Shown: piece after piece, positions 9,901 to 27,842 of the stretch
Numbering within the stretch: the stretch's first letter is position 1
Layout: each line of letters opens with the position of its first letter
Sequence record: DRR723986_1723
DNA length: 64,000 nt
Strand: one strand, 5' to 3'
The notes under the pieces: model-generated
Told to the model about the DNA's origin: nothing
What the model saw: the letters and a program-made list of their open reading frames with translations, nothing else
Databases searched by the model: none
Made by a program: the position numbers and the translations under genes

Positions 9901-9967
9901 CCTGTCATAAATTCACAGTAAAAGCGTCGCCAGCAAGCATTCACTAATTGTGGCCGCCGCGTAGTAT
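9901..9967 (+). promoter_or_regulatory. Putative AraC-type tandem operator plus promoter for the DUF1295 gene pair
   Basis: CCTGTCATAAATTCACA matches the sites at 23472 and 27803 at 14/17. A second half-site CGTC-N7-AGCA lies 22 bp later, then TTCACT-N16-TAGTAT. Confidence 0.65.
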
Positions 9968-10002
9968 CGGCAGGCACACACTAACAATAATAGGAATGCA
10001 CC

Positions 10003-10788
10003 ATGGAACAGCAACGGGAACCGATTCCCGGCTGGGCGCGCGCTTTTCTCGCCCTCGTCGACAAACTTATCTGGAACGCACCGGGCAAACCGCGCATTCG
10101 CGTTGCCTGGGCGGTGGACTTCCACAAGATTTTTACCCTGTTCATCATCTACGCCATGATGAATTACTACGACAATTTCACCACCACCGCCTGGGTCTAC
10201 CTTGGCCTGCACGGTATTTATGGTTACTGCTGGCTGATTAAAGACTTCGGTTTTCGCGACCACCAATTCAACGACCGTATCAGCGTACTTGCCTCCATCA
10301 ACCTCTATGTTTTTCTCATCGGCTGGTACTGGATCACCCCGTGGCTGCTGATTTCGCGCTTCATCGAGCCCAGCGGCGCGGTCGTATTTGCCGCCATTGC
10401 CATTCACACGCTCGGCGTTGTCACCATGATGGCTGCCGACGGCCAGCGCCACTGGATACTTAAATACCGCCGACAACCAGGGCTGATTACCGACGGCGTC
10501 TACCGCTACACCCGCAACCCGAATTACCTCGGCGAGCTAATGCTGTACGCCGCCTACCCGATGCTGGCCCAACACTGGATCGCCTGGGCGATCTACGCGT
10601 ATATGGCTAGCTATTTCCTGGCGCGGATGAAGAACAAAGATCACGCGATCTCCCGTCACCCGGGCTGGCAGGAATACAAACAACAAACCGGCTTGCTGAT
10701 ACCCTGGCGCTTACTGACCGGCGCCGCCATTGCCGACCGCCTGAAGCAATCCCCCTCGCACCCGGAGGCCAGCATCAATGCAAAATGA
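10003..10788 (+). CDS. DUF1295 / steroid 5-alpha-reductase-like (ICMT-fold) membrane protein
   Basis: Several TM helices and the GLITDGVYRYTRNPNYLGE motif. Confidence 0.75.
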   Translation: MEQQREPIPGWARAFLALVDKLIWNAPGKPRIRVAWAVDFHKIFTLFIIYAMMNYYDNFTTTAWVYLGLHGIYGYCWLIKDFGFRDHQFNDRISVLASINLYVFLIGWYWITPWLLISRFIEPSGAVVFAAIAIHTLGVVTMMAADGQRHWILKYRRQPGLITDGVYRYTRNPNYLGELMLYAAYPMLAQHWIAWAIYAYMASYFLARMKNKDHAISRHPGWQEYKQQTGLLIPWRLLTGAAIADRLKQSPSHPEASINAK

Positions 10789-11188
10789 AACTTCCTGGAA
10801 ACGCTTTTACCGCTTCGCCGCATTCTTCAACTTCGCGGCGGCGTTTATGCTGCTATTTGCCACTGAGGCCTTCTTTGCCCTGCTGCAAATGCAAAGCCTC
10901 TATGTGCCCGAGCTACTGCCCTGGGCCCATCAATTTGGCGTGCTGGTATTGGTGTTTGGCTTTGGTTATTGGCGCATTGCCGGCAACCCAAAAAACCACA
11001 AAGACATTATCTGGATGGGCTGCATCGGCAAAACCCTGGTCTTCGTTGCGGCCTGGGTGGATACATTGAGCTTTCCGGCACTGATGCCCTTCGCTATTTT
11101 TGTGATCGCCGATCTCGCCTTTGCGGTGTTTTACGGCCTGTACCTACTCAACCATGCCCGATACGAGGGTCAGCGCCAATTGCGCTAG
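10778..11188 (+). CDS. Small 4-TM membrane protein of unknown function
   Basis: Four hydrophobic segments; start overlaps the DUF1295 gene end, with an SD-like GGAGG upstream. Confidence 0.75.
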   Translation: MQNETSWKRFYRFAAFFNFAAAFMLLFATEAFFALLQMQSLYVPELLPWAHQFGVLVLVFGFGYWRIAGNPKNHKDIIWMGCIGKTLVFVAAWVDTLSFPALMPFAIFVIADLAFAVFYGLYLLNHARYEGQRQLR

Positions 11189-11239
11189 CGCTCAACGCAC
11201 GCGTAGTGCTTGTGGGAGGCTCCTGGGCCTTCCACCTTT

Positions 11240-11449
11240 TTAATTCTCGTCAGACTCTATGGCCCGACGCTCGCGATCATAGTCATCGTAGGGCTGCACC
11301 GTCTGCGCGATACATGCCTCGTACTGAGAAGGCGGCAGCTTATCGCACTCGAAACGATTACTCGCCTGAATACTCTCGTATAACTCTCGGCTCGCACAGC
11401 CGCTGAATAAAATCAGCGCGCCAACCGCCAATACACCTTTCATCCGCAT
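11240..11449 (-). CDS. Small lipoprotein
   Basis: Lipobox FSGC, a Cys pair (FEC...EAC), GGAG SD upstream; follows rluF. Confidence 0.7.
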   Translation of the reverse strand: MRMKGVLAVGALILFSGCASRELYESIQASNRFECDKLPPSQYEACIAQTVQPYDDYDRERRAIESDEN

Positions 11450-11464
11450 ACTCCAACAATGTCG

Positions 11465-12265: not shown

Positions 12266-12385
12266 GCTGTATCTCTCTTTACTTGCTACTCACGCCCGTT
12301 ACCGATGGTGGTCTCGGGATAACAAGTCTGACACAGAAATCATTGAGATGAACTACAAGCGCGGAGCAAAGCAGGGGCGAGGGAG

Positions 12386-12423
12386 AAAAAAGAGGTGGTC
12401 GCCAGGGCGATAGCGGCCACCTC
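12386..12423 (-). terminator. Intrinsic terminator ending the cluster operon
   Basis: The minus strand reads gaggtggccgct-N8-ggcgaccacctc followed by tttttt. Confidence 0.8.
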
Positions 12424-12440
12424 CCTCCCCGAGGGGATTC

Positions 12441-13220
12441 TTAACGGGCGGTATAGCCACCGTCCATAACCAGTTCCGAGCCGGTCATATAACTTGCCGC
12501 GTCGGAAAGCAAAAATACAATACCCTGGGCAATTTCCTCTGCCCGCGCCATACGTCCCATCGGGATACTGGCCACCACGCGCGTAGCAAAGGCATTGGCG
12601 TCGTCCTCTGACAGCTTGGCCAGCGCGCCGCTTACCAGAGGCGTTTCTACATAACCGGGGTGAAGGGAGTTCACGCGAATACCGTAGTCGCGATCGGCAC
12701 AATACAGCGCCAGTGACTTGGTCAGTGCGCGCACGGCGCCTTTGCTGGCGTTGTACGCTGGCAGCATTGGGTCGCCGACAATACCTTCAATCGACGAGAC
12801 ATTAACGATCGCACCGCCGCGCGATTTCATGGCCTGAATGGCCGCACGACTGCCGAGAAAAACCGCGTCGCTATTGATGGTCTGGGTGCGCCGCCACCCC
12901 TCCAGACTTTCTTCCTCGGGGCCGCAAATTACCGCGATACCCGCGTTGTTCACAACGCCATCCAGCTGACCAAAGCTGGCGACAACCGTTTCCATGCAAT
13001 GCTGCCACTGCCGCTCGTCGCACACGTCCAAGGGAAAGAATTCCGCATCGGCGCCCGCCGCGCGCAGTGCCTCGCACAGCGCTCGGCCAGCGTCCTGATC
13101 GATATCGCTCACCGCCAGCTTCGCACCTGCTGCCGCCAGGGCATGGCACGCCGCCGCGCCAATGCCTTTGGCGGCACCCGTGATCAACACCACTTTGTCT
13201 TTACAATGAATACTCATCAC
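12441..13220 (-). CDS. Short-chain dehydrogenase (3-beta/17-beta-HSD or cyclopentanol dehydrogenase-like)
   Basis: TGAAKGIG, NNAG, YNASK catalytic motif, IRVNSLHPG. Confidence 0.85.
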   Translation of the reverse strand: MMSIHCKDKVVLITGAAKGIGAAACHALAAAGAKLAVSDIDQDAGRALCEALRAAGADAEFFPLDVCDERQWQHCMETVVASFGQLDGVVNNAGIAVICGPEEESLEGWRRTQTINSDAVFLGSRAAIQAMKSRGGAIVNVSSIEGIVGDPMLPAYNASKGAVRALTKSLALYCADRDYGIRVNSLHPGYVETPLVSGALAKLSEDDANAFATRVVASIPMGRMARAEEIAQGIVFLLSDAASYMTGSELVMDGGYTAR

Positions 13221-13226
13221 ACTCTC

Positions 13227-14045
13227 CTACGCTGCGGTGAAACCGCCATCCACAGTCAGCTCAGCGCCACTGATATAGGCGCTGGCATCACTGGCGAGAA
13301 ACAGCGCCGCATTGGCAATATCCTCTGCTGTGCCGAGCCGCCCCATCGGGATCATCTGCTGCTCCAATACCGCACTGGCTTCCTCGCGAGACTGGGTGAG
13401 CCCAACATCCACAAAGTCGTCGTAAACCTGCTCGGCCATGGCGGTATCGATCAAACCGGGGTGCAGCGAATTGACGCGAATGCCGTAGCCAAAGCGGGCG
13501 AACTCAACCGCAGAGTGCTTGCTGATGGAGCGCACCGAGCCCTTGGTTGCACCGTAAATGCTGTGACCAGGGACGCCGATCAAGCCGGCGATAGACGACA
13601 GATTTATCACGCTGCCGCCGCGACCAAAGCAGCCGCTGGGCTGCATCGTTTCAGCCGCATAGCGCAGGCCGAGAAACACCGATTGCACATTGACCTCGTG
13701 GATACGGGTCAGTTGCTCTACCGAGTTGTCTTCCAGGCGGCCGCCAATGTAAATGCCGGCGTTGTTCACCAGAATATCCCAGCGGTTGTGCCACTGTCTC
13801 AACTCTGCCACCAAGGCCTGCCAGTCTTCCTCCAGCACCACATCTTGCTGAATAGCGCGCGCGTCAAAGCCCTGTTCATTCAGCTCCGCTGCCAGGCGCT
13901 GACAGGCGGCCACATCGATATCACTTAGCAGCACCGAGGCGCCCGAGTAAGCCATGCGCTGGGCGCAGGCCTTGCCAATGCCCGCCGCTGCTCCGGTCAC
14001 CACAGCGACTTTGCCCTGCAGCGAAAAAGGATTGTTCTCTTTCAT
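13227..14045 (-). CDS. Short-chain dehydrogenase (hydroxysteroid/cyclic alcohol dehydrogenase-like)
   Basis: TGAAAGIG, NNAG, YGATK, IRVNSLHPG. Confidence 0.85.
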   Translation of the reverse strand: MKENNPFSLQGKVAVVTGAAAGIGKACAQRMAYSGASVLLSDIDVAACQRLAAELNEQGFDARAIQQDVVLEEDWQALVAELRQWHNRWDILVNNAGIYIGGRLEDNSVEQLTRIHEVNVQSVFLGLRYAAETMQPSGCFGRGGSVINLSSIAGLIGVPGHSIYGATKGSVRSISKHSAVEFARFGYGIRVNSLHPGLIDTAMAEQVYDDFVDVGLTQSREEASAVLEQQMIPMGRLGTAEDIANAALFLASDASAYISGAELTVDGGFTAA

Positions 14046-14071
14046 TGTTATTTTCCGTTGAGTATTGATGT

Positions 14072-15067
14072 TCAGCGCGCGGCGATATTCACGACCGCGC
14101 GACCACGAATTTGCCCCTGCAAGATTTGCCCAGCGGCGTCAGGAAGATTGTCGAAATCAATCTCAACTGCCATCGCTTCTAGTTTGTTCAGGTCGACAGA
14201 CTCGGCCAAACGCTGCCATGCGCGCTCACGGAGCGCCATTGGCGCGTGTACCGAGTCCACGCCCAGCAGGGCGACATTGCGCAGTGCAAAGGGCATCATA
14301 TTGCCGGGTAAGTCCAGGCCCTGGGCCAGGCCGCACGCGGCCACGGCGCCGTTGTAGTGAAGTTGGGCAATAACATTGGCCAGGGTATGGCTGCCACAGG
14401 AATCCACCGCCGCTGCCCAGCGGGGCGCCTGCATCATCTCACCGGCTTCTGACAACTCGCGGCGATCAATCACGGAGTTTGCACCCAGGCTCTTTAAATA
14501 GTCGCTTTCTTCAAGGCGACCCGTCGACGCTGCCACGGTATAGCCCAGGCCCGCCAACAACATAATGGACACGCTGCCCACTCCCCCCGACGCGCCGGTT
14601 ACCAGCACTTCGCCCGACTCAGGGCCAATACCGAGCTGCTCCAGTCGCAGCAGAGACAACATCGCGGTGTAGCCCGCGGTACCCAGCAGCATGGCGTGGC
14701 GGGTAGTGAAAGCCTCAGGCACCTTCAACAGGTAGTCGCTCGAAATACGCAGGCGCTGGGTATAGCCGCCATTGTGCGTTTCTGAGGCGCCATAGCCATT
14801 CATCAGCACCTTGTCACCGACCTGAAAGCGGCTGCTCTCAGACTTAACCACAGTGCCTGCCATATCAATGCCGAGAATCAGCGAAGGCTTTTGAACAATG
14901 GGAATGGCGTCGCTCATCGCCAGGCCATCTTTGTAGTTAACGGTAGAGTATTCCACCGCTACCTCCACATCACCGTCGCCAAGTTGTTCGCTGCTGAGCT
15001 GCTGAAATTCAACGCGGTAGCCACTGTCGTCGCGTACGCCAAGCAAGGCTTTGTATGTCTCTGTCAT
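14072..15067 (-). CDS. YhdH/AcuI-family MDR enoyl-CoA (acryloyl-CoA) reductase
   Basis: YSTVNYKDG, GTAGYTA, VTGASGGVGS, ACGLAQG, LLGVDSV. Confidence 0.85.
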   Translation of the reverse strand: MTETYKALLGVRDDSGYRVEFQQLSSEQLGDGDVEVAVEYSTVNYKDGLAMSDAIPIVQKPSLILGIDMAGTVVKSESSRFQVGDKVLMNGYGASETHNGGYTQRLRISSDYLLKVPEAFTTRHAMLLGTAGYTAMLSLLRLEQLGIGPESGEVLVTGASGGVGSVSIMLLAGLGYTVAASTGRLEESDYLKSLGANSVIDRRELSEAGEMMQAPRWAAAVDSCGSHTLANVIAQLHYNGAVAACGLAQGLDLPGNMMPFALRNVALLGVDSVHAPMALRERAWQRLAESVDLNKLEAMAVEIDFDNLPDAAGQILQGQIRGRAVVNIAAR

Positions 15068-15084
15068 GGTGAGTCCTTTTGTTG

Positions 15085-16461
15085 TTAGTTACCCAAGCGG
15101 CGCAGGGCGCCGTTGGTTAAATAGCGGTTATAAATATCGTGATCGTTCACGCGCATCCGGTGGCCGCCAGAGATTTCTGCCAGCTGCTCTATGCGGGTCA
15201 TTTTTCCGGTCTGCACATCGAAAGCGTGAACATGGCACCACGACCAATAGGGGTGCTTACCGTCCATTACCCGGCGATCGCCGTCTTCGTATAGCCCATA
15301 GGCACCATCGAAGGAACGGAACAGATCGCCGCGCCGGTCAAAGGTGACCATGCCCAGCGGCAACTGGGTGCGCGCATCAAACCACACCCGTTTAACGCCG
15401 ACGGGGGCGCGCGGGAAGCCCGTGGGCTTGGCATCAACGGCAATGGCTTCGGGCACTAATTCCACGTCGGTATCCCAGAAGGTTTCTCCCTGTGGGCCGC
15501 CATGGGTGTTGTGCGACCAATCCTCACTTTGCGAGGCCCAGCCACCGCTGACGGCGGCCAGCATGGGGCCGCGCCACACCACTTTGTAGTCGCCCCAGGT
15601 GTGCAGGGGGTCACCCGCCGCCCAGGCGTCGGACAGGTATAGCGATGAACCCGGCACCAATGGTTCAAAGCGCTGGTCGGTGGGGAAGCGGCGAATGCGT
15701 TTAAAATCGGGAATGTAGCCGTATAACTCGGGAAATTTGTTTTGGTCGTAGTGCCAAATGTTCAAGAAGGACGTGCCGCGTACGCTGTCTGGCGCCGTGA
15801 AAAAGACACTCTGATAGCGCAGCTTGTCTTCGTGGCCCTTCCAGTAAACGCCGGGCAGTACCAAACGCCCTGTCGGCGCATATTCAGCCCAGCCATTTTC
15901 GTAGCCGTAGCTGACTTTGCCGTCGCGGTTGAGGTCGTATTCGCGGATCGCATAGAACGAAGCATCATGTCGCCCCCAGCTTAACGTTAGGCCCGCAAAA
16001 AGCTCCACACCGGTCTTGGCATCAGGAAAGGGCAAGCCACCAATCCAGGGTTTGCCGTCGGCCGTCACAACATTGCCATTGTCGTCAAAGCGCGCTTGGC
16101 CGCGGTGGCGAAAGCTCGCTTCCATATATTCCCATGGGCTCAGCTTCATCACATCGCGAGTGGTCTCACGCAACCTCAAACGACGCCCCATGTCTTTGAC
16201 TTGCATGTACTTCACCGGCTCGAGAAGATCTTTTACCAGCTCGACATTCCCGGCGTCGATGACATCGCCGACCTTGAGCTTGCCGCCGGTATATTGCTCT
16301 ATCGACAGCAACTCCTCTGGATAAGCCGCCGCATAATCGCCGTGTTTTTCCATTGCCGCCCAAGCCGGCATCAGCAGGCCCGCCCCGACAAAACCCGAGC
16401 CTACACGCAAAAACTCACGCCGGGAAAACTGCCGGTCAAACCGCCTGATATGAAAACTCAT
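15085..16461 (-). CDS. DUF1329-family periplasmic protein (paralog B) with Tat signal
   Basis: Start reassigned to ATG 16461 after GAGGA SD. FSRREFL twin-arginine motif and GLPFP motif; colinear with 19430..20809. Confidence 0.8.
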   Translation of the reverse strand: MSFHIRRFDRQFSRREFLRVGSGFVGAGLLMPAWAAMEKHGDYAAAYPEELLSIEQYTGGKLKVGDVIDAGNVELVKDLLEPVKYMQVKDMGRRLRLRETTRDVMKLSPWEYMEASFRHRGQARFDDNGNVVTADGKPWIGGLPFPDAKTGVELFAGLTLSWGRHDASFYAIREYDLNRDGKVSYGYENGWAEYAPTGRLVLPGVYWKGHEDKLRYQSVFFTAPDSVRGTSFLNIWHYDQNKFPELYGYIPDFKRIRRFPTDQRFEPLVPGSSLYLSDAWAAGDPLHTWGDYKVVWRGPMLAAVSGGWASQSEDWSHNTHGGPQGETFWDTDVELVPEAIAVDAKPTGFPRAPVGVKRVWFDARTQLPLGMVTFDRRGDLFRSFDGAYGLYEDGDRRVMDGKHPYWSWCHVHAFDVQTGKMTRIEQLAEISGGHRMRVNDHDIYNRYLTNGALRRLGN

Positions 16462-16477
16462 ACAACATCCTCGCGGT

Positions 16478-16504
16478 AAAAAAGCCGGCGACAAAGTCGC
16501 CGGC
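16478..16504 (-). terminator. Intrinsic terminator-like hairpin inside the operon
   Basis: The minus strand reads gccggcgac-ttt-gtcgccggc followed by tttttt. Confidence 0.7.
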
Positions 16505-16542
16505 AAGGTCCCATTACTTCCTGAGGGTGGGGGTAGGGTTCG

Positions 16543-18459
16543 CTAGAATTGGTAGGCTACGCGCAGACCAAATTCATCGGCCCAGTCCACGGTTTGCATG
16601 ATATTTTCGTTCTCGTTGGCGCCATCAACGTAGCCGTCCATGTGGTTGTAGAACATTTCTATGTTCCAGTTACCGGAGGGCTTCCATTTCAGAGCCGGCT
16701 GCACAAACAAGCCGCCGCGCGTGTCATACAACACCGACAAATCTGCTCGCCATACCAAACCAGGGAAGGGCTGCTGAAGGGCTAATACCAAACCATTCCA
16801 GCCACCATCCACACCTTTAGGCGTGTTGTTTACCGTGCCGCCCATACCACTTAAGTGGCGGCCAAACAGATCGCTCTCGCTGCGGTGCATCCACTGGAAA
16901 ACCATGTAGGTAGCAGGGAAACTGCGGCTGAAGCGCTGATATTTTTCTAATACCAGGGCAGTCACGTATTCATCTTCAACAATGTATTCCTGCCCCAGGT
17001 CGATAGGGGTAAAGGTTTTGTCCGGCGTGAAGGAAACCTCGAAGTTCAGAATCAACTGATCCGTCCAACTACCGGGCTCGCCACTGAATACATAGCTGAC
17101 ACCAGTGCCGAAAACATCTTCGCGGTGGTATGTGCGCTCAATGTGACCACGCAGACCGCCGCCGCCCTGACCAGACAGTGGGTTATTCAGGAAACCACCC
17201 GTCAGGATAAAGAACAGATCGAGCTCTTCTTTTGCCGCATCGATGCCCTGAACAGGCCGCGCCAGCAGCAATTGCGATGCGGGGAAGTCGGTAACAATTT
17301 TGTTCAGACCTTCGGTGCCGTCAAGGCGCGCCATACCCGCATAGGTAAACCACTCCTCAGCACTCCATACCCCGGTGGGGTCAATTTCAAGCGGGGTCTC
17401 CGCAAGGATGGCGCCCGAAAATGGGATGCCCGGTGCATCGCGGTTCACACCCGATTTGGTCCAGCGCACAACACCGTCAGGGTTGTAGCGGTTGGTATAC
17501 ATAAACTGCAGACCAAAGTCGCCAATAAAGCCTTTCAAGCGGAAACCGCTATTCACTTCTTCGTCAACACTGCTGTAGCGATCGTGCACGGTAAACTGCG
17601 AAGGAATCACGTTGTAGGGTGTGTTCGGGTTGCCGTAAATGGTCGGCTGGAAGCTCTGCGCAAACATGTCCAGTTCCCAGTTGGAATTCAGCTGGTAGGA
17701 CACGCGGATGGCCGGTGAGGCGATACGCTCATCGGCGTACTCCTCGGAAGCGAAATCGAAGATTGAGTGACGGCGCAAGTCCAAGCCGTTGGCCACGTCG
17801 AATACCCGGAAGAACAAGGCCTGTCCCCAGGCAATTTGCTGGTTACCGGCGCGCACCAATAACGGCCCGTTCTGATAGTCCAGGTACAGCGACGGAAAGT
17901 CGACCATGTAGTTGTCGCCAGCGATCTCCAGAGGATTCTGTTCACCGCCGTTTTCAAAGTCGTCGTACTCGAAATAATTGGGCTCGCCATAGAGGTAACC
18001 CGCGGCGTTGCTGTTCACCGAATCCGGATCAAATTCATCGTATTCGGCTGCGTCAAAAATGCCGCGCAGCTTTGCCGTCGCTGACCAGTTGTCACTAAAC
18101 TTCAGCTGCAAGGTGCTCTCTAAACGCACCTGGCTGTGATTAAAATCGTTGTCGGCCGGAACACCGTTGCGCGTCGCGGTATCCGAGATCGGCGCACTGA
18201 TAGGAATGGGTAAATTCAGGCCGAGCAACGTACCCACGTTGAGGCCACCGTTACGCTCAACCTCCTTGCCATTAAAGAGGTTACCGCGCTGGTTGTAGGG
18301 GTTTTCGTCACTTACCGTTTTGGCAGCCAGCTCTACACGAATCAAACCACTAAGGCTGTAGTCGACACCCAGCAGCTCACCACTGGCCGACCACGATGGA
18401 CTAGACAGTGCCATCGCCGTTGTGGCGAGAGCCCAATTAAGCCGATTATTATTTTTCAT
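16543..18459 (-). CDS. DUF1302-family outer membrane beta-barrel protein
   Basis: Signal peptide, RAGNQQIAWGQALF motif, C-terminal VAYQF barrel signature; DUF1329/RND context. Confidence 0.8.
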   Translation of the reverse strand: MKNNNRLNWALATTAMALSSPSWSASGELLGVDYSLSGLIRVELAAKTVSDENPYNQRGNLFNGKEVERNGGLNVGTLLGLNLPIPISAPISDTATRNGVPADNDFNHSQVRLESTLQLKFSDNWSATAKLRGIFDAAEYDEFDPDSVNSNAAGYLYGEPNYFEYDDFENGGEQNPLEIAGDNYMVDFPSLYLDYQNGPLLVRAGNQQIAWGQALFFRVFDVANGLDLRRHSIFDFASEEYADERIASPAIRVSYQLNSNWELDMFAQSFQPTIYGNPNTPYNVIPSQFTVHDRYSSVDEEVNSGFRLKGFIGDFGLQFMYTNRYNPDGVVRWTKSGVNRDAPGIPFSGAILAETPLEIDPTGVWSAEEWFTYAGMARLDGTEGLNKIVTDFPASQLLLARPVQGIDAAKEELDLFFILTGGFLNNPLSGQGGGGLRGHIERTYHREDVFGTGVSYVFSGEPGSWTDQLILNFEVSFTPDKTFTPIDLGQEYIVEDEYVTALVLEKYQRFSRSFPATYMVFQWMHRSESDLFGRHLSGMGGTVNNTPKGVDGGWNGLVLALQQPFPGLVWRADLSVLYDTRGGLFVQPALKWKPSGNWNIEMFYNHMDGYVDGANENENIMQTVDWADEFGLRVAYQF

Positions 18460-18480
18460 CTCGCTTCTCCGAGGCTATTT

Positions 18481-19428
18481 TTAAAGAGAAATTTTGATCA
18501 CTTTGGCTTGTTCACCGACGGCATAAAAAGCGTTACCGAGTACCGCAATATCGCTGTACCAGCTTTCTAAAAATGCGTCGTGATTCAGTACCCGCGCCTG
18601 ACTGCTGGTCGGCGAAATACTCAAGGCCTGACGAATTCCCGTCGCGACCGCCTTGCCATCCGCGCGGATGGCAACATCCATCAAGATGGCGTCGCTATTA
18701 CTGGTTATGGCTTTCCAGCTGTCGCCACCATCCTTGCTGCGCAATACCGTTCCGCTCTGACCAACCGCATAGGCCAAACCGGTATCGCTGAGGGCGAGGC
18801 CAAACAGCGACGCTTCACCGCTGTGCAGCGACTGCCAGCTTTTCCCGGCGTCATCAGAGCGGGCGATCATGCCAAACTCACCGACAATGTAGATGCGACC
18901 GCGCGCATCAATTGCCGCGTTATACACATGTGGCTGATAGTTCTGTCCGATCAGTGCCGGCCAATCGATCTGCGACTGCTGCCAGCTGCGACCACCGTCT
19001 TGTGAACACAGCACCGCACCAAAAGCACCCGTGGCAACCGCCAGACCAAAGTCTCCCTGCGCAACGGCAAACAAGCGCTCTTTCACAGGTGCCTCGACAG
19101 CCTTCCAGCCGTCGCCGGCATTGTGAAAAATGCCGCCCTGCTGGCCCACAGCCAACAAGTTGCCCTGGCGCTCCGACACCGCCAGTAGCGCGCGACTATC
19201 ACCAACATTGCTGTTGCTCTGCCACTGGCTACCGTCGCGGCTCTGCCACAAGCGGCCATTGCTACCCACGGCAAGCAAGCCGTCACTGCTGGTATTCACG
19301 CCGAAGAGCACATCGTGGGGATGACCTCGGTGTACCTGTTCACTGCTGGCTGCGGCGGCGGGCATCGCCCCCGCCGTCAGCAGCAGCGCACAAACCCCCG
19401 CGGCAACGCGGTTCTTAACGCTAGCCAT
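18481..19428 (-). CDS. YCF48/BNR (Asp-box) beta-propeller protein
   Basis: Start reassigned to ATG 19428. Signal peptide and repeated SxDGGxSW / SDDAGKSW Asp-boxes. Confidence 0.85.
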   Translation of the reverse strand: MASVKNRVAAGVCALLLTAGAMPAAAASSEQVHRGHPHDVLFGVNTSSDGLLAVGSNGRLWQSRDGSQWQSNSNVGDSRALLAVSERQGNLLAVGQQGGIFHNAGDGWKAVEAPVKERLFAVAQGDFGLAVATGAFGAVLCSQDGGRSWQQSQIDWPALIGQNYQPHVYNAAIDARGRIYIVGEFGMIARSDDAGKSWQSLHSGEASLFGLALSDTGLAYAVGQSGTVLRSKDGGDSWKAITSNSDAILMDVAIRADGKAVATGIRQALSISPTSSQARVLNHDAFLESWYSDIAVLGNAFYAVGEQAKVIKISL

Positions 19429-19429
19429 A

Positions 19430-20809
19430 TCAGCCTCCCAGGCGCTGCATCGCTTGCACGGTGAGGTACTTGTTGTACACGTCGACATCGCCGGGATTGA
19501 AGTTGGTCTTGTAACCGCCCGTTACGCCCTTGGCCTGTACAAAACGGCTCATGCGGTTGGACTGCACGTCGTGGCTGTGAACACTGGACCAGGACCACGC
19601 GGGATGGGCGCCGTCCATATTGGTCATCTTGTCGTTCGACTGCTGCGCGTAATGCGGCTCGAAGGACTTCCAGATCTCACCGCGACGGTCGTAGGTCACG
19701 TAGGCGACATACATTTGGTTGCGTACATCGATCCATACACGGCGCTTACCCACGGGCGCACGTGCATAGCCGGTTGGCTCCGACTCCAGCACGATGCACT
19801 CAGGCACCAGTTCCATGTAGGTGTCGAAGAAGGTCTGGTCTTTAGGGCCACCGTGCACGGGTTTTTCCCAGTTGTCGTGATAGCCGCCGTGGAAATTGCG
19901 CGGACCGATGCAACCCAGCATTGGCTGGCGGCCGACAATTTTGTAGTTGCCCCAGGTTTGCAGCGGGTCACCCGCCGCCCAGGCATCTGACAGGAACAAA
20001 GTGATACCCGGTACCAGCGGTTCAAAACGCTGGTTAGTGGGGAACTGTCTTACCCGACGGAAAGCGGGGATATAACCGTGCAGTTCGGGGAATTTACGTT
20101 GATCGTAATGCCAAATATTCAGGAACGAGGTACCGGCACTGTCGTTAGGCGCGGTGAAGAATACCGACTGGTAGCGCAGCAAGTCTTCTTTGCCCTTCCA
20201 AACCTGACCGTCGGAACGTGACGTGGTATTCAGCTCACTCCATACAAAGTCGTACTGGTAAGACAGACTGCCGTTATTGTCTATATCCCAGTCGCGAACC
20301 GCGTACTGCGACCAGTCGTGACGACCCCAGCTCATCGTTAGGTTGTACTGCGCCTCTACACCATTTTTGGGTTCGGGGAAGGGGTTACCGCCAACCCAGG
20401 GCTTGCCGTCTTTTGTCCACACATTGCCGTCACTGTCGAGCACAGCCTTACCCTTATTGCGCAGGGTGGCCTCGAGGTACTCAGCGGGGTAGAGCTGCGT
20501 AATATCTTTCACCGGTTCAACAATGTGAATACGGCGACCCATGGTTTTTACTTGCATATACGCAACGGGGTCGAGCAAGTGCTTCACATGTTCAACGTTA
20601 TCGGCGGTAATCACATCGCCCGGTTTGATCTTGCCCTTGGTTTGCATCTCGATAGACAACAGTTCATCGGGATAGGCCTTACTCATGTCAGCGCCGTTGG
20701 CGATCAGTGGCCACAGCGGCGCAATCACGCCCGCTGCACCAATACCTTTAACGGTTTTTTCCAGGAAACTGCGACGGCTAAAGTCTGTATCGTATTTTTT
20801 AATATGCAT
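19430..20809 (-). CDS. DUF1329-family periplasmic protein (paralog A) with Tat signal
   Basis: FSRRSFL twin-arginine motif, GNPFPEPKNGVE motif, GGAGG SD. Confidence 0.82.
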   Translation of the reverse strand: MHIKKYDTDFSRRSFLEKTVKGIGAAGVIAPLWPLIANGADMSKAYPDELLSIEMQTKGKIKPGDVITADNVEHVKHLLDPVAYMQVKTMGRRIHIVEPVKDITQLYPAEYLEATLRNKGKAVLDSDGNVWTKDGKPWVGGNPFPEPKNGVEAQYNLTMSWGRHDWSQYAVRDWDIDNNGSLSYQYDFVWSELNTTSRSDGQVWKGKEDLLRYQSVFFTAPNDSAGTSFLNIWHYDQRKFPELHGYIPAFRRVRQFPTNQRFEPLVPGITLFLSDAWAAGDPLQTWGNYKIVGRQPMLGCIGPRNFHGGYHDNWEKPVHGGPKDQTFFDTYMELVPECIVLESEPTGYARAPVGKRRVWIDVRNQMYVAYVTYDRRGEIWKSFEPHYAQQSNDKMTNMDGAHPAWSWSSVHSHDVQSNRMSRFVQAKGVTGGYKTNFNPGDVDVYNKYLTVQAMQRLGG

Positions 20810-20868
20810 CGTTTACCTCCGGGTGGAACCCTTGATTATCTTTTTATTGATTGTCGGTCAGCTCAGGC

Positions 20869-23328
20869 TCAGCTGACCGCCTCGGCCCTGATTGCAGCGC
20901 GTTGCTGAACGGCTGCGCGCTCGTCTTCTTCTAAAAGTTTGCTAATGTCCATGCCCTCGCCCAAGACCAAAATGTCTTTGCTGGACACGAATTTCGGCTT
21001 CATTACCCACACCAACAACGGCAGCACCACCAGCGCGATCACCATGTTGATCAGCATCACCAGCACCAGCAGCAAGCCCATGTCGGCCAGGAATTTCAGG
21101 CCGGACAGGAAGTACCAGGGGAGAATGCCCAGCAGCATGATGCTGGCGGTGAACATGATGGCTTTACCGGTAGTGGTCAGCGCGGAGGTAATGGCCACGC
21201 CATAGTCCTCACACTCGTGATATTCCTCACAGATGCGGCTGAGCAGATAGATGCCGTAGTCGATACCAACGCCGACACCAATGGCAGCAACCATCAGCGA
21301 GTTGATGTCCAGACCAATGCCCATGAACGACATGCTGGTGGTTAAAATCATGTTGGATAGGTTAACCGGGATCAGCAGTACCACACCGGCAACCACCGAG
21401 TGATAGGCATAGCTCGACACCGCCAGAATGACCAGGTTGAGCAAACCCATAATCAACCAGTGATAACGCTCTACCACATGGTTAATGGCCTGCTGGATAG
21501 CGATGGTGCCGCTGCCAAGGCGCACAGTGAAAGCGTCGTGGTCTGCACCCACTTGCTCCACAGCAGCCCGCGCGGCCGCCAGCGCGTTGTCGACGGTGTC
21601 TTGTTTGTTATCGGCATACCAAAAGGACACGGTGGAGTTTTGCAATTCAAAGTCCACGACATTCGAGAACGCTTTGGGGCTCGTTCCCATCAGTACTGCC
21701 GACGCCGCAGCGTTAACGGCTCGGTCGTTATTGTCCAGCGGCAACCACTTGCTGTGGCCACCGGAGATCAGCCGGTTGGCATCCATTAAGTAATCGGCAA
21801 AAGACAACGTCGCCCGCGGCGCGTGCTCGCCCGACTCCATAATCGATTGCAGCTGCAACATCGTTGCCACCGCATCGGCTTGTTTGGCCACGCGATCGCT
21901 TCCGCTGTCGCCCTTCGCCTCCAGGATCACTTCGAGGGTATTCACACCGGGGAAGTGATTATTGATCTGGGCCACCGATACGTTGTACTCAGAGTCCTCC
22001 CACAACAGGTTGCTGCCCTCCACCGGATTACCGATCTGAATACGCATCGAGTGGTACAGCGAGAACACACCCACCGCGATCACAACAATCATGGTGTAGG
22101 GAGCAATACGACCTTGGGACAGACGGGAAATACTGGCTAATGCTGCTTTCACCTTGCCGTGGAAACCACCGGAATGATCGCTGACAATTTTTTTCAGGTT
22201 GCGCGGCTCAGGCAGCACTGACAGCAACAGCGGCGCAAGAAATACCCCAGTCGGCGCCAACATCATTGCCCAGAAACCGCAGAACAGCGCGAAGCGTTCC
22301 ATTGCCGGAATCGGTGCGATAGAGATCAGGAAGATACCCGCAGCGTCGGTGATAATGCCCAGAATAGAGGGCGCCATCATCACGCTGGTTGTTAAACCCG
22401 CGGCTTTTACCTTGTCGCCGAGTTGATCGAAAATTTCATAGAAACGCTCGGTGAATTGTACGCAGTGACTAAACGAACGCGCGATCAACAGCAGCGGCAC
22501 GATCATCAACAATGGCTCGATCGGCATCTTCATCCAACCGGCAAAACCAAAGCCCCAGATCGCGGCCACAATACTGGCAAATATCGGTGTAACAACACCC
22601 GCCATGTTCTGCGTATACAGCACCAGGGCGATGACCAATGCACTCAGGGTAATGGCGAAAATACCGATCATTTGATGCTGGTATTCATAGACCCAACCGG
22701 TCAGTGCGGGCTGGCCCGCCATGTATACATCGTGATTCGCATCCGTCGCATCATCGGCCAGTTTTTTAACAAAAGCGAAGGCCTCGCCGTAGTCCAGGCG
22801 CTGCTCAATAAATGTTGCGGTTACCAATGTAGCGGTTTCGTCTTCTGAAATAAGAAACCGACGTGCATTCGGCGACTTGCGAACATTGTCTTTAAATTGC
22901 TGCACTTCTTCGGGCGTTGCCGGTACCGAATCACCCATTAAAGGTTGGGCGTCAATACCGAAAGGCGTAGCCTCTGCGTAGCGCGCTTTTGCCGATGCGA
23001 TCGATAGTATCTGGTCGTGATCCACCCCCGGCGACAAGTCGATGTCGCGAGTGAGATCCCAGACTTTCGACAGCGTTTCAGCATTGTATATATCGCCGTT
23101 TTTATTCTTCACCATCAAGGTGAATGTCAGTGGATTACCGAAATTCGGATGGTCCTTAAAAACATGAATAAACGGATCGTCCTTGGGAAGCAGGTCTGAA
23201 AAAATGGTTTCTAAACGGACATTTTTCAAACCGGCGGCAAAGAACAGGGTTATTGCGAGAAACAATATCGAAGCAATTATTCGGTGCTCAAGCACCGCCA
23301 TTGCAATTCGGCCTCTTATATTATTCAT
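20869..23328 (-). CDS. MMPL/RND-family inner membrane transporter
   Basis: Two repeats of TM plus periplasmic loop plus 5 TM; GVGVGIDYGIYLLSR and TTGKAIMFTA motifs. Confidence 0.88.
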   Translation of the reverse strand: MNNIRGRIAMAVLEHRIIASILFLAITLFFAAGLKNVRLETIFSDLLPKDDPFIHVFKDHPNFGNPLTFTLMVKNKNGDIYNAETLSKVWDLTRDIDLSPGVDHDQILSIASAKARYAEATPFGIDAQPLMGDSVPATPEEVQQFKDNVRKSPNARRFLISEDETATLVTATFIEQRLDYGEAFAFVKKLADDATDANHDVYMAGQPALTGWVYEYQHQMIGIFAITLSALVIALVLYTQNMAGVVTPIFASIVAAIWGFGFAGWMKMPIEPLLMIVPLLLIARSFSHCVQFTERFYEIFDQLGDKVKAAGLTTSVMMAPSILGIITDAAGIFLISIAPIPAMERFALFCGFWAMMLAPTGVFLAPLLLSVLPEPRNLKKIVSDHSGGFHGKVKAALASISRLSQGRIAPYTMIVVIAVGVFSLYHSMRIQIGNPVEGSNLLWEDSEYNVSVAQINNHFPGVNTLEVILEAKGDSGSDRVAKQADAVATMLQLQSIMESGEHAPRATLSFADYLMDANRLISGGHSKWLPLDNNDRAVNAAASAVLMGTSPKAFSNVVDFELQNSTVSFWYADNKQDTVDNALAAARAAVEQVGADHDAFTVRLGSGTIAIQQAINHVVERYHWLIMGLLNLVILAVSSYAYHSVVAGVVLLIPVNLSNMILTTSMSFMGIGLDINSLMVAAIGVGVGIDYGIYLLSRICEEYHECEDYGVAITSALTTTGKAIMFTASIMLLGILPWYFLSGLKFLADMGLLLVLVMLINMVIALVVLPLLVWVMKPKFVSSKDILVLGEGMDISKLLEEDERAAVQQRAAIRAEAVS

Positions 23329-23420
23329 CTTGCCGGTCCTTCAAGATCGCGGAAAATTAGTCATTAATTTTCCCGCGTATTATTTTTTTTAACGTATCAA
23401 CGAGAACGTGATTAGCAGTC

Positions 23421-23498
23421 AGATTAATCGCTTATTAAAAGGCCGGTAATGCCTGTTCCCGACCCTTTTGCTGTTAATTTACGACAGCGTTTTCCAGC
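23421..23498 (-). promoter_or_regulatory. Putative AraC-activated promoter of the RND-DUF1329-YCF48-DUF1302 operon
   Basis: The minus strand has GCTGTCGTAAATTAACA, a second half-site GGTC-N7-GGCA at +22, then TAATCT 23 nt later. 23472-23498 is 24/27 identical to 27803-27829. Confidence 0.7.
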
Positions 23499-25102
23499 TA
23501 TGACGCGAAGTCATAAACATGATTTTTTTGCTCTTGGAAAAGCTGATAACAGAAGCGCGCCTGCGGTTTTTCCGAGGCGGTTTTCGGTATTTCTGACATG
23601 ACCTGGATGTAGCTCGGCAGCTCTGTTCTACCCAGCACGGCTCGACAGTGATCGAGTAGTTTTTGCGGGCTGAACAAACACACATCCACCGGCACTACCG
23701 CGGCAATGACATCTTTCTCGCCGGGCACACCACTGGTGGCGGGAATACCATAGACAAAAACATCGGCGACATCGGGATACTCGGCGATGGTTTTTTCAAT
23801 TTTTGCGGTATCGATAAATTCGCCATTACGGCGAATTTCATCACCCTTACGGCTGTCGAAATAAAACCACCCGTCCTCATCACGGTGACCAATATCGCCG
23901 GTAAAGAACACACCGTTTTGTACTTTCTTCGCCGATGCTTCTGGATTTTTAAAGTAGCTTACTGCCAGTGTGGGTTGCCCTGGCGCCGCCTCGAACACAA
24001 TTTCGCCGCGCTCATTCGGGGCGCATTCGCGGCCGTCTTCGTCGATGACTTTGGCAATCAGGCTGGCGGGGGGCTTACCGATACTGCCGATCGGACCACC
24101 CGGTGGATTAAAGGTCATCCCACCTTCGGCGGCGCCGTAAAATTCGAACAGCTCAACGTCGAAACGCTGTTTGAAATCTTCCCATATTGCGGCGGGCATA
24201 CCCGCACTGAGAATATAGCGAACCGGGTTATCGGCATCGTCGGCTTTGCGCGGCTCACTGTATATTGCCGTGGTCATGCCGCCGAGCAGGTTAAACATGG
24301 TGCAGCCATAGTGGCGGCAAATATCCCATAAACGGGATTTACTAAACTTGCGGCTAATGACCCCGCGCAGGCCCATTTTCAACACATTGCCCAGGGTAAC
24401 CAGCTGCGCGTTAGCGTGGGTTAGCGACAGGCCGGTGTAGGGGCGGTCCTCACTTTGCAAACCGATCGCGGGCCCAATTGATGCCACATTGTCAAAGCGT
24501 GTATAGGGCGCGCGTATCGCTTTTGGGTCGCCGGTAGTGCCAGAGGTATACAGCATTTGCATAACCTCGTCGGCGCTCTCTACCCGACAGACGCGCTCTT
24601 CATAGGGACCGGAAATCACGTCGCTGTATCGTGCCACGCGCTCGTCAGCCGATTGCAGGCTAACCTTCTCGCCGGTGTCCATCACCCAGATCCAGCGGAT
24701 CTGCGGCATGTCCTTACACACTTGGTAAACGCTATTAAAGCAGTAGTCTGCGCAGACCACGCCCGAGCACTCGGCCCAGCTCAGCATATAGCGCAAACGG
24801 TCGCCGCCGGTACGCGGATCAATCGGCACGTATACCGTGCCCGCCAGCGAGCTGCCAACCATGCAGTCGATAAATTCCGGGTGGTTTTGCATCACTAAAG
24901 CAAAGCTACTGCCGCGCTCCATGTTCTGCTCCAACAAGGCCTGGTTGACTCGCTGACCTTGTTCCCACAAATCGCGGTAGCTTCGCTTTTCATCTTCAAA
25001 GCCACCACAGGGTTTAATGTTTACAAATGTCAGCACGTCCAGATCGGGCTGTTGCTGCATTTTCGCCTCAATTAAATTGGCGAATATTCGTTGATCTTTC
25101 AT
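23498..25102 (-). CDS. Acyl-CoA ligase (CaiC-like AMP-binding enzyme)
   Basis: YTSGTTGDPK, EFYGAAEG, FFTGDIG, PKTASEK. Start reassigned to ATG 25102. Confidence 0.88.
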   Translation of the reverse strand: MKDQRIFANLIEAKMQQQPDLDVLTFVNIKPCGGFEDEKRSYRDLWEQGQRVNQALLEQNMERGSSFALVMQNHPEFIDCMVGSSLAGTVYVPIDPRTGGDRLRYMLSWAECSGVVCADYCFNSVYQVCKDMPQIRWIWVMDTGEKVSLQSADERVARYSDVISGPYEERVCRVESADEVMQMLYTSGTTGDPKAIRAPYTRFDNVASIGPAIGLQSEDRPYTGLSLTHANAQLVTLGNVLKMGLRGVISRKFSKSRLWDICRHYGCTMFNLLGGMTTAIYSEPRKADDADNPVRYILSAGMPAAIWEDFKQRFDVELFEFYGAAEGGMTFNPPGGPIGSIGKPPASLIAKVIDEDGRECAPNERGEIVFEAAPGQPTLAVSYFKNPEASAKKVQNGVFFTGDIGHRDEDGWFYFDSRKGDEIRRNGEFIDTAKIEKTIAEYPDVADVFVYGIPATSGVPGEKDVIAAVVPVDVCLFSPQKLLDHCRAVLGRTELPSYIQVMSEIPKTASEKPQARFCYQLFQEQKNHVYDFAS

Positions 25103-25119
25103 GGTGTCCCCCAACAGTC

Positions 25120-26355
25120 TTATTCTTTGGACAAAATGCTTAACACCAGCGCAGCAGCGTCGCTGCCAATGAAGCCGCCGCCGTTTTCAGCCAGAGCATG
25201 CTTCGCGCCGTGAACTTGTCGGTCTCCCGCCTCGCCGCGCAGCTGTGTTACCAACTCGACGATTTGGGCGGCACCAGTGGCGCCAATCGGGTGACCCTTG
25301 CGCATTAGTCCACCCGAGGTATTCACCGGCACGCGACCGCCCAGCGTGGATTCACCGCGAGCGACAAAGTCGCCGCCTTCGCCTTCTGCACACAGGCCGA
25401 GGTATTCGTAGTATTTAATTTCAGAGATCGCCGAAGCATCGTGCAGCTCGACGCAGTCGACATCGTCGGCGCCGATGCCCGCTTGCTGATAAATGGCTTC
25501 CGCGGCCTGCGGCACCATTTCCGGCTCGTCGTCAACGCGGTCCCAACCACTGTGCAGAGAAGAGGCGCGTACGCGCACGCAGCGCGACATACCCAGCTCT
25601 CGCGCTTTCTTTTCACTCACCATGACCAGCGCCGCCGCGCCGTCGCCAATGGGCGCGCACATTGGCAGGGTCAATGGGTCGACAATCGCACGCGCCGACA
25701 AGACGTCTTCGGCGGTAATACGGTGGCGAAATTGAGAGAGCGGGTTGAGGCTGCCGTGAATGGAGTTCTTCGCCGACACCGCCGCCAGTTGTTCACGGGT
25801 GGTGCCATACTGGTGCATATGTTCACGCGCCCAGGTGGCGTAAATATCGATAAACAGCGATCGACTGATACCGGCCTGGCTCATATCCAGGTCCATGCCG
25901 ATGGCGGCATTGCGGGCTTGCAGGCCTTCTCGAATACTGTCCATCTGGTCGATATCCACCGCGCCGGTAAATACCGAAAAGGTTTTTTCTTTATCTTGGT
26001 GATAGAGCTTTTCGTAACCGCACACCAACACCACATCGTAGACGCCGAGGCTGATCATGGTGGCGGCTTGCTGAAAGGCCGTCGCCGAGGTGGCGCAGGC
26101 ATTTTCGACATTGATAACAGGGATGCGCCCAATGCCCATGTTGCGCAGCACCACCTGGCCTGGCACACAGACTTGGCCGGTAATGACCGCCGCCGCGCCA
26201 TTTCCCATGTAGGCGGCGTTCAACTCAGAGGCTTCCACATCAGCATCGCGCAGGGCCTGCTGAATAGCAGCGCCGGCGAGCTGACTCAAACTCTGGTCAA
26301 TAGCATTCCCAAAGGGCGTCATGCCGACGCCCGCAATATAGGCTTTTTGTTCCAC
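25120..26355 (-). CDS. SCP2-type thiolase-family protein
   Basis: NVENACAT, VELHDA, NTSGGL..KGHPIGATG; ENGGG at the C-terminus with no second Cys. Confidence 0.88.
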   Translation of the reverse strand: MEQKAYIAGVGMTPFGNAIDQSLSQLAGAAIQQALRDADVEASELNAAYMGNGAAAVITGQVCVPGQVVLRNMGIGRIPVINVENACATSATAFQQAATMISLGVYDVVLVCGYEKLYHQDKEKTFSVFTGAVDIDQMDSIREGLQARNAAIGMDLDMSQAGISRSLFIDIYATWAREHMHQYGTTREQLAAVSAKNSIHGSLNPLSQFRHRITAEDVLSARAIVDPLTLPMCAPIGDGAAALVMVSEKKARELGMSRCVRVRASSLHSGWDRVDDEPEMVPQAAEAIYQQAGIGADDVDCVELHDASAISEIKYYEYLGLCAEGEGGDFVARGESTLGGRVPVNTSGGLMRKGHPIGATGAAQIVELVTQLRGEAGDRQVHGAKHALAENGGGFIGSDAAALVLSILSKE

Positions 26356-26368
26356 AGGGTTCTCCGGC

Positions 26369-27697
26369 TTAGTTGCCCAGTTTTTCTTCGTCGATCAAGT
26401 AGCTGCCGCCCTTAATAGCGAGCACTTCGTTGCAGCCGTCTTCAATCATTGATGCGCGGGCATCGCGGAGCATTTTTTCCATCGGGTACTCGCGAGTCAG
26501 GCCATTGCCGCCGAATATTTGTAGCGCATCGCTGCACACTTCGAAGGCCTGTTGCGTGCCGGTGGTTTTCGAGAACATGGCTGAACACAGCGAGGGGATC
26601 GCCGTTGCCGGGTCGTTGTTGTAGTCGAGGGCACGACGCGTCACTGCGCGCGAGGTCTCCACCTTGCGGAACATATGGAAGAGGCGGCTTTTCACCGATT
26701 GGTGATGAATAATCTGCGTGCCACCAGCAACGCGTTCGTGAGCGTAGTCGAGCGCCATGTCCGCGGCCGCCTGCGCCAAGCCGGTGAAGGTAGCCCCCAT
26801 CAGTGCGTTGGCTTCAGCGTGAATGCAGTACACCGCGCGCTGGTAATCTTCAGGACCAGCCAGCAGATATTTGCGTGGCAGCCGAACATTATCGAAGAAG
26901 ATTTCACCTTGGTTCAGCGCGCGCTGCCCCATTTTATCCAGCGGCTTGCCGCGAGAGATGCCCGGCAGGTTCATCGGGAAAACCAGCACGCAGCCATTGT
27001 GCGGATCAACACCATTACCGCTGTCGGCCGCACAGTACAGAATACAAACGTCGGCGATCACGCCGTTGGAAACCCACGCCGCTTTCTGGCCGTTCAGAAT
27101 AATGTCGTCGCCGGTCAAATCGGCAACCAGATTCGGGCGGCCGTACTTGCCACCCGGCTGAGCGGCAGCGCCGTTGGGGTCGAGCATATCTGAACCGTGG
27201 TCGGGCTCGGTGATACCCCAGCAGCCAAGCATCGCGTCGGGGAATTCTTCCAGTAGGTCAGCGCGACCAAATTTGGCAGACAACCACTGCGGCAAAATAC
27301 CGGCACCCACAGAAATCGCCAGACCGGCGTCGCCATAGCCCAGCTCTTCAAACAGTATGCTAAACAGCAGGGCGGCCTCGCGCGGCGGCATCTCTGACAA
27401 GGCTTCAATCGTTACGCCCAGCTCCAAGTACTTCTCACGGAATTCCCAAAAGCGCGAATCCTTGGCAATCACCTCTTCCGGGCTCAGCTTATCCAGTTCA
27501 ATACCAATGGGGCGCACCACGTTAATCGCAAAGTCGCGCAGGGTTTGTTGGAATTCAGCAATATGCTCGGGCAAACTCGCCTCGGCACCTGAGATGGTCA
27601 GCTTGCTTTTGGGGGTAGCGGGCCAGCGGTACAGAGGGGCTTCTAAGTTGCGGTAGTCAACATCCACAGGGCCTGTGGCAAGAGCGGTATCGTTCAT
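26369..27697 (-). CDS. Acyl-CoA dehydrogenase
   Basis: GITEPDHGSD, NGQKAWVSNG, QIFGGNG..EYPMEKMLRDAR..IEDG. Confidence 0.9.
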   Translation of the reverse strand: MNDTALATGPVDVDYRNLEAPLYRWPATPKSKLTISGAEASLPEHIAEFQQTLRDFAINVVRPIGIELDKLSPEEVIAKDSRFWEFREKYLELGVTIEALSEMPPREAALLFSILFEELGYGDAGLAISVGAGILPQWLSAKFGRADLLEEFPDAMLGCWGITEPDHGSDMLDPNGAAAQPGGKYGRPNLVADLTGDDIILNGQKAAWVSNGVIADVCILYCAADSGNGVDPHNGCVLVFPMNLPGISRGKPLDKMGQRALNQGEIFFDNVRLPRKYLLAGPEDYQRAVYCIHAEANALMGATFTGLAQAAADMALDYAHERVAGGTQIIHHQSVKSRLFHMFRKVETSRAVTRRALDYNNDPATAIPSLCSAMFSKTTGTQQAFEVCSDALQIFGGNGLTREYPMEKMLRDARASMIEDGCNEVLAIKGGSYLIDEEKLGN

Positions 27698-27751
27698 GAC
27701 ATTTCCTCTACTTCGTTATGTTTGTTATGTGTAAGCGATATCGATGTGAGG

Positions 27752-27829
27752 ATAGTAGCCAGCGCCCCGGCAAAGTTAGATGTTTACAGCAGACAATCTG
27801 GTTGTTAATTTACGACAGCAATTTTCAGC
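27752..27829 (-). promoter_or_regulatory. Putative AraC-activated promoter of the acyl-CoA dehydrogenase-thiolase-ligase operon
   Basis: The minus strand has TGTC-N7-AACA twice at 22 bp spacing, then TACTAT 23 nt later; divergent from the araC gene at 27843. Confidence 0.72.
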
Positions 27830-27842
27830 GCGTGACGTGTTC

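Follow-up and report, generated by a model that had tools for sequence, protein, structure and literature searches.

How a single regulator might reach three separate groups of genes is the question raised by a locus in sequence record DRR723986_1723, in which three short and similar stretches of DNA each stand ahead of a transcription unit and one of them lies beside the gene of an AraC-family regulator, AraC1. We analysed this locus within the 64,000-nucleotide stretch that carries it (hereafter the window), for which an original prediction had proposed a tandem operator shared by three promoters under the control of AraC1. Phylogenetic footprinting and genome-wide specificity in relatives support the shared operator and a predicted three-promoter regulon, and we give a probability of roughly three in four to the reading that the three sites, A, B and C, are operators of AraC1, acting as an inducer-dependent class-II activator on tandem direct repeats at three promoters.

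Architecture of sites A, B and C

Site A, divergent from the AraC1 gene, runs from 27819 to 27781 on the minus strand and consists of a distal box (27819 to 27803, GCTGTCGTAAATTAACA), a 7-nt spacer and a proximal box (27795 to 27781, TGTCTGCTGTAAACA). Site B, on the same strand from 23488 to 23450, has the same 17-nt distal segment (23488 to 23472, GCTGTCGTAAATTAACA), followed after a 7-nt spacer by a proximal box at 23464 to 23450, and site C, on the plus strand from 9901 to 9939, carries a variant of the distal segment (9901 to 9917, CCTGTCATAAATTCACA), again a 7-nt spacer, and a proximal box at 9925 to 9939. All three are 39 bp long and combine a well kept distal box, TGTCGTAAATTAACA, with a looser proximal box of the form GTC-N9-CA. 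The strings are present in the window at the positions and on the strands originally claimed for them, and the proposed spacing of the two GTC-N9-CA half-sites is likewise borne out, the GTC-to-GTC register read off the sequence being 22 bp at A, B and C. A -10-like hexamer of the form TAnnnT follows each proximal box at the distance first given for it: TACTAT at promoter A (27757 to 27752, minus strand; 23 nt), TAATCT at promoter B (23426 to 23421, minus strand; 23 nt) and TAGTAT at promoter C (9962 to 9967, plus strand; 22 nt).

Site B begins 9 nt 3' of the stop codon of the acyl-CoA ligase gene that ends the preceding unit, and site C begins 3 nt 3' of the stop codon of parE. When the sites are compared within the window, B and C agree at 32/41 positions, and A agrees with these two at 28/41 and 26/41. 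Scans for consensus promoters and for terminators found neither a sigma-70 promoter at the three sites nor a terminator separating the ligase gene from site B, each result being weak negative evidence; missing consensus promoters are what would be expected of activator-dependent ones. An alternative reading of the boxes as ECF-sigma or sigma-54 promoters was dropped by eye, the AAC-to-GTC distance being 8 nt and GG-N10-GC being absent.

Conservation and specificity in relatives

We examined 40 genomes of the family Spongiibacteraceae (Neomelitea, Zhongshania and Litorivivens), 16 of which encode AraC1 orthologues at 65 to 100% identity, and took 20 kb on the cluster side from each of 17 AraC1 loci (one genome has two). 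As would be expected if the motif belongs to the orthologous genes, site A adjoins AraC1 in 17/17 loci and site B lies ~4.3 kb beyond site A in 15/17, the two loci without it being likewise without the RND pump cassette that this site precedes in the window. Site C was examined in the 15 loci where the ICMT-like protein of the third unit has a homologue, and is found ~100 nt before the start of its gene in 11 of them (at most 3 mismatches), with a degenerate twelfth. Two Litorivivens-type loci have the ICMT-like gene directly after the last SDR gene inside unit B, where it has no promoter of its own, and among the 15 loci no site C stands before one ICMT-like homologue of 51% identity. Even where the ICMT-like gene has been lost, in one genome, a C-type site still stands ahead of the small open reading frame (ORF) that otherwise accompanies it.

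Conservation is concentrated in the elements proposed to be functional. Mean pairwise identity, computed among distinct sequences in box-anchored alignments, is 0.99, 0.94 and 0.81 for the distal boxes of A, B and C, respectively, and 0.84, 0.65 and 0.71 for their proximal boxes, compared with 0.42, 0.34 and 0.34 for the upstream flanks and 0.45, 0.42 and 0.54 for the stretch between operator and hexamer; the outer flanks of the sites span 0.34 to 0.56. The hexamers are kept in relatives at unchanged distances, as TAnTAT at promoter A, as TAATAT or TAGCAT at promoter B and within GCGTAGnTT at promoter C. Boxes and hexamers are kept while flanks diverge, as is typical of a protein-binding site plus a -10 element and not of DNA that is conserved throughout.

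One relative (L040, positions 1-1700) has a 314-amino-acid ORF inserted between AraC1 and the dehydrogenase gene, and it carries two distal boxes, one beside AraC1 whose proximal box is broken and one in a full site before the dehydrogenase gene. Another (L106, positions 4999-5637) has lost the RND cassette save for a pump fragment (residues 72-138, 85% identical), ahead of which site B is kept. A further relative, G028, an assembly 84% complete with 7% contamination, holds two full cluster copies on contigs C92 and C120, with AraC1 copies 74% and 76% identical to that of the window, which may be two strains binned together.

The sites are also specific. A degenerate form of the distal box, CTGTCRTAAATTMACA, matches the 64-kb window exactly at 3 places and, with up to 3 mismatches allowed, at 5, where 0.75 are expected and none of 100 shuffles reaches 5; the two additional matches, at 28355 and 59484, have 3 mismatches each and are both without GTC. 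Exact matches to TGTCRTAAATTMACA number 26 among the 40 family genomes and all fall in 15 of the 16 AraC1-bearing genomes, the 16th having a site with one mismatch, and the 24 family genomes without AraC1 have none; one-mismatch matches elsewhere in the 40 genomes are about as common as matches to the reversed control. The two-box skeleton TGTCNNNAATNNACANNNNNNNNGTC was drawn from the sites themselves, so that only its specificity is informative and not its sensitivity, and it has exactly 3 matches per genome in 5 related genomes of 3.4 to 4.3 Mb, 14 of the 15 being site A, B or C, with none for the reversed control. The scattering of the motif at random positions through the genome, which would have spoken against a regulon, is therefore not what these 5 relatives display. 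A chance origin of the sites is excluded.

One explanation of these likenesses is that they reflect promoter segments copied inside the cluster by duplication or gene conversion and read by no regulator, or else chance. The agreement of B and C takes in the spacer, which hints at a common descent of the segments, but such descent is compatible with an operator role, and conservation, compared between genera and between two families (the second is described below), is concentrated in the boxes and falls off in the flanks. Together with the confinement of exact boxes to AraC1-bearing genomes and the three skeleton matches per genome against none for the control, this makes sites without a reader very improbable.

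Two variants of the box, TGTCGTAAATTGACA and TGTCATAAATTGACA, recur in several genomes without AraC1, and G019 has one such site outside the cluster. They may represent the operator of another AraC paralogue with a PF12625 domain, or chance; the nearest genome compared has 26 matches to PF12625 AraC paralogues.

AraC1, AraC2 and the mode of regulation

AraC1 (27843..28883, plus strand) has a PF12625 N-terminal domain (125.1 bits against a cut-off of 27.6) followed by a double helix-turn-helix (HTH_18, 62.5 bits, cut-off 33.6; HTH_AraC, 31.5 bits, cut-off 26.6), which places it in the AraC/XylS family and in its PF12625 subgroup. A longer ORF from 27780, by which site A would be coding, was rejected: alignments of orthologues begin at the methionine at 27843, the ATG of the longer frame is missing in Litorivivens-type sequences, and B and C carry the motif without any such ORF. 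Scores of AraC1 lie below the NCBIfam cut-offs for QhpR (172.6 against 250 bits), CypR (125.7 against 500) and GliR (119.9 against 570), from which it follows that AraC1 is no equivalog of these named regulators. Its closest solved relatives are chain 5chh (E 6.6e-26) and VirS 8rcx (E 3.4e-16), with which, as with QhpR, CypR and GliR, it shares a two-domain architecture.

A second regulator gene, AraC2 (28856..29863, minus strand), is convergent with AraC1 and encodes a paralogue 30% identical to it that also carries the PF12625 domain (134.5 bits). The sites might therefore be real operators and yet have as their reader AraC2, or the two paralogues mixed or in competition, instead of AraC1 alone. 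AraC2 is found in the same 16/40 family genomes, always adjacent to AraC1, and since the two distributions in the family are identical, co-occurrence cannot separate them, so that the assignment depends on position and on a second family. The two proteins have similar recognition helices, and both operator types share the skeleton TGTC-N8/9-CA and a 23-nt distance to the hexamer. AraC2, however, has a repeat of its own in its divergent region. On the plus strand at 29897..29932 stand two boxes TGTCCTCATTTCGCA (29897-29911 and 29918-29932) with a period of 21 bp, followed after 23 nt by TAACGT (29956-29961), ahead of a gene for a DUF5938 protein. This repeat, TGTCC-N4-TTTCGCA twice, is recognisable in 12/12 related loci, with GTCC changed to GGCC in two Litorivivens-type loci, and is probably the site of AraC2 and a fourth promoter of the cluster.

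The proteins differ in step with their putative operators. In the recognition helices, RT.QRKL and SF.HA.KRW do not vary among 15/15 AraC1 orthologues, and group-specific residues differ in both helices, Q274 of AraC1 being R in AraC2 and S321 being H or N, differences that fit operators with a common TGTC...CA skeleton and a different middle.

The second family, of the same order, offers an independent view. We sampled 12 of its genomes and found AraC1 homologues at 53 to 55% identity in 4, all four of which carry GCTGTCGCAAACTAACA-N7-TGTCGTGCGTAAACA, or a close variant, in the divergent region beside the AraC1 homologue, 23 nt ahead of TATAAC or TATAAA and in GC-rich DNA that is otherwise unrelated. 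The targets form one long operon that encodes a dehydrogenase, a thiolase, a ligase, a DUF5938 protein and the RND cassette. Neither a second operator site nor AraC2 occurs within 10 kb of the locus, and no AraC2 orthologue was found genome-wide, the best match, at 30 to 32%, being the AraC1 homologue itself. An A-type operator beside an AraC1 homologue where AraC2 has no orthologue, and the distinct repeat of AraC2, support AraC1 as the regulator, as the original prediction had it, and make AraC2, by itself or together with AraC1, quite unlikely as the reader of these sites.

Besides the shared distribution of the two paralogues, several points weigh against AraC1 as the activator of all three promoters. 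The proximal boxes have little in common beyond GTC...CA, for which reason they are best called putative half-sites. The twelfth site C (relative G040) has 5 mismatches in its distal box, with the skeleton and the proximal box kept. The nearest genome compared (locus L012) retains site C with two changes and has no AraC1 orthologue (best match 32%), which shows that a site can outlast its regulator. The derivation of the skeleton from the sites has been mentioned, and the genome-wide scans cover the genomes of relatives and not that of the window. Four RNA-labelled runs (from at most 3 samples and 3 studies) yielded assembled contigs that cover parts of the cluster at 90 to 99% likeness, and these carry no starts, strands or levels, providing no support for activation.

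Should AraC1 nevertheless be the regulator, the operator would comprise two 15-bp half-sites in direct repeat with the skeleton TGTC-N8-ACA and a 22-bp register (two helical turns), the distal half-site, TGTCGTAAATTAACA, being strong and the proximal one weaker and promoter-specific. Two AraC1 protomers would occupy the two half-sites, one for each DNA-binding domain, and the two helix-turn-helix motifs of each domain would read the TGTC and ACA ends. The proximal half-site would abut or overlap the position of the -35 element missing from these promoters, and AraC1, having taken a hydrophobic or acyl inducer in its PF12625 domain, would recruit RNA polymerase as a class-II activator. It is the geometry of the sites that points to activation by AraC1: the 22-bp register and the hexamer distances of 23, 23 and 22 nt, kept in relatives, correspond, as far as geometry can say, to the class-II tandem-repeat arrangement. 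The start codon of AraC1 is 23 nt from the distal box of site A, hence the araC1 promoter must overlap the operator and autoregulation is likely.

Two well-known systems have a comparable layout. AraC of Escherichia coli acts at pBAD through araI1 and araI2, a strong distal and a weak proximal half-site in direct repeat, the latter overlapping -35 and becoming occupied on induction, with a divergent and autoregulated regulator gene. The strong distal and weak proximal boxes of the window are analogous to this pair, although AraC has a cupin ligand domain in place of PF12625, no looping site of the AraC/pBAD kind was identified for AraC1, and AraC1 scores 25.6 bits against the AraC equivalog cut-off of 208. 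XylS, at the Pm promoter of the TOL plasmid of Pseudomonas putida, binds as two monomers to a pair of 15-bp direct repeats and contacts RNA polymerase, its two recognition helices reading a 5' box and a 3' box in each repeat (PMC5481539). The half-sites of the window resemble those of Pm in being 15-bp tandem units beside the -35 position, TGTC at the 5' end and ACA at the 3' end of each, and differ in their boxes (TGCA-N6-GGTA for XylS) and in the 22-bp period. AraC1 also differs from XylS in its effector domain, PF12625, and in that three promoters would come under one operator type.

It could still be that AraC1 is mainly a repressor or roadblock, or that the hexamers are not -10 elements, and that the class-II geometry is illusory. 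The hexamers are short and were picked by eye, read-through from promoter A could feed unit B given that site B lies only 9 nt past the ligase stop codon, and some repression of araC1 itself is likely where its promoter must overlap site A. Yet the hexamers hold their distance where the intervening ~20 nt vary, the AraC2 operator and the second family have the same spacing, and a repressor would need a promoter to block, whereas none of the sigma-70 consensus type was found at the three sites. Tandem direct repeats adjoining -35 are, moreover, the arrangement of XylS at Pm (PMC5481539), and we regard a mainly repressive AraC1, or an illusory geometry, as unlikely.

Target units, cluster history and significance

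If AraC1 activates the three promoters, it would switch on together a beta-oxidation-like trio, an AmeABCD-like four-part envelope transporter with three reductases, and an ICMT-like protein with a small ORF. The trio is unit A (23498..27697, minus strand), which by Pfam and NCBIfam encodes an acyl-CoA dehydrogenase (26369-27697), an SCP2-type thiolase-like protein (25120-26355) and the acyl-CoA ligase (23498-25114), in an order unchanged in 17/17 loci. Unit B (12441..23328, minus strand) has eight genes assigned with the same two collections, and their order is conserved in relatives: an HAE3/MMPL RND pump (20869-23328), a DUF1329 protein (19430-20809), a BNR/Ycf48-like protein (18481-19488), a DUF1302 protein (16543-18459), a second DUF1329 protein (15085-16506), a YhdH/AcuI-type reductase (14072-15067) and two SDRs (13227-14045 and 12441-13220), all on the minus strand. 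Pfam scores are above cut-offs throughout (DUF1302, 107.8 bits; DUF1329, 173 and 224; PSII_BNR, 49; MMPL, 75.7), and the RND pump scores 150 bits with the NCBIfam HAE3 subfamily model, below its cut-off of 351.9. Unit C (10003..11188, plus strand) comprises the gene of an ICMT/PEMT/DUF1295-superfamily membrane protein (10003-10788), overlapped by a 136-amino-acid ORF of no known family (10778-11188) that remains paired with it in relatives and for which an Atlas look-up returned hypothetical proteins only. The probable fourth transcription unit is the saccharopine-dehydrogenase-like/DUF5938 gene (30038..31150, plus strand), with a likely start at ATG 30038, after GGAG.

A 260-amino-acid ORF (11459-12241, plus strand) lies 270 nt 3' of the small unit C ORF. 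Its identity to the closest relative that bears the cluster is only 81%, against 97 to 100% for neighbouring genes, and it has no counterpart beside the pair of ICMT-like gene and 136-amino-acid ORF in the 12 loci compared, Zhongshania-type loci included. This ORF is probably outside the regulon. Neither it nor the 136-amino-acid ORF has a Pfam family at E up to 0.1 except for one chance-level match.

Unit B contains, co-located, genes for all four components of an AmeABCD-type tetrapartite cassette. AmeABCD of Castellaniella defragrans consists of a DUF1302 outer-membrane protein, a LolA-like DUF1329 protein, a BNR/Ycf48-like protein and an HAE3 RND pump, with a transport direction that was inferred from tolerance and dye data (PMC6394551). 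By its genes, unit B has the same four components and the same position beside catabolic genes for a hydrophobic substrate (PMC6394551), and departs from AmeABCD in gene order, in the second DUF1329 copy and in the predicted co-transcription of three reductases. Homologues in Pseudomonas putida have instead been linked to growth on fatty esters (bioRxiv 10.1101/2020.07.04.188060).

In relatives the third unit is a conserved part of this cluster, but the units have moved relative to one another. Zhongshania-type genomes have the ICMT-like unit and site C adjoining the AraC pair and the DUF5938 gene, whereas the window and its two closest relatives have this unit at the opposite end of the cluster, next to parE, and Litorivivens-type genomes have the ICMT-like gene fused to unit B. 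We infer that the operator accompanies each unit through such rearrangements. The nearest genome compared, although 96 to 98% identical in the flanks, is without ~12858-30887 of the window, ~18 kb that span both AraC genes and units A and B, and what is left of the last SDR there directly adjoins what is left of the DUF5938 gene. The site C that it retains fits an orphan operator left by a recent ~18-kb deletion.

In the same genome the next 4 kb (window 31219-35199) is replaced by ~500 bp of unrelated DNA. This strain-variable stretch holds two ORFs on the minus strand, of 362 (31282-32370) and 813 amino acids (32443-34884), neither with a Pfam family; the Atlas neighbours of the latter are hypothetical-protein clusters, among them one with the automatic name 'carboxypeptidase regulatory-like domain'.

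More tentatively, and with less confidence than we place in the three-promoter regulon itself, the operators, the second regulator and the gene content could be read jointly as a two-input, four-promoter circuit built from portable operator-promoter cassettes. Two old AraC paralogues, 30% identical, would have acquired orthogonal half-site codes on one skeleton, TGTC-GTAAATTA-ACA with a 22-bp period for AraC1 and TGTC-CnnATTTCG-CA with a 21-bp period for AraC2, both with the same 23-nt offset to -10. The operator-promoter cassette would have been copied whenever the ancestral single operon, still present in the second family, split into units, and would then have travelled with the split-off units through later rearrangements. 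Such a circuit may govern both a DUF1302/DUF1329 envelope transporter and a beta-oxidation-like route, so far undescribed, that acts on a hydrophobic acid.

Within the limited collection of literature that we searched, nothing pairs Zhongshania with AraC or contains the operator string. The operator and regulon, previously undescribed and of a familiar type, are well supported by the sequence comparisons, and the general understanding of AraC-family regulation is unchanged by them. What they provide, for an AraC regulator of hydrocarbon-associated marine Spongiibacteraceae that had not been characterised, is a precise operator together with a complete predicted regulon, tying an ICMT-like membrane protein and a reductase-like DUF5938 protein to a cluster for catabolism and transport. 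The AraC1 and AraC2 operators, apparently distinct in specificity, could also serve with their regulators as a natural pair of regulator/operator parts. The DUF1302/DUF1329/BNR/HAE3 envelope system is poorly understood, and the inducer of AraC1 would offer a short route to its substrate; if the two-input circuit is true, that inducer would name the substrate of the transporter.

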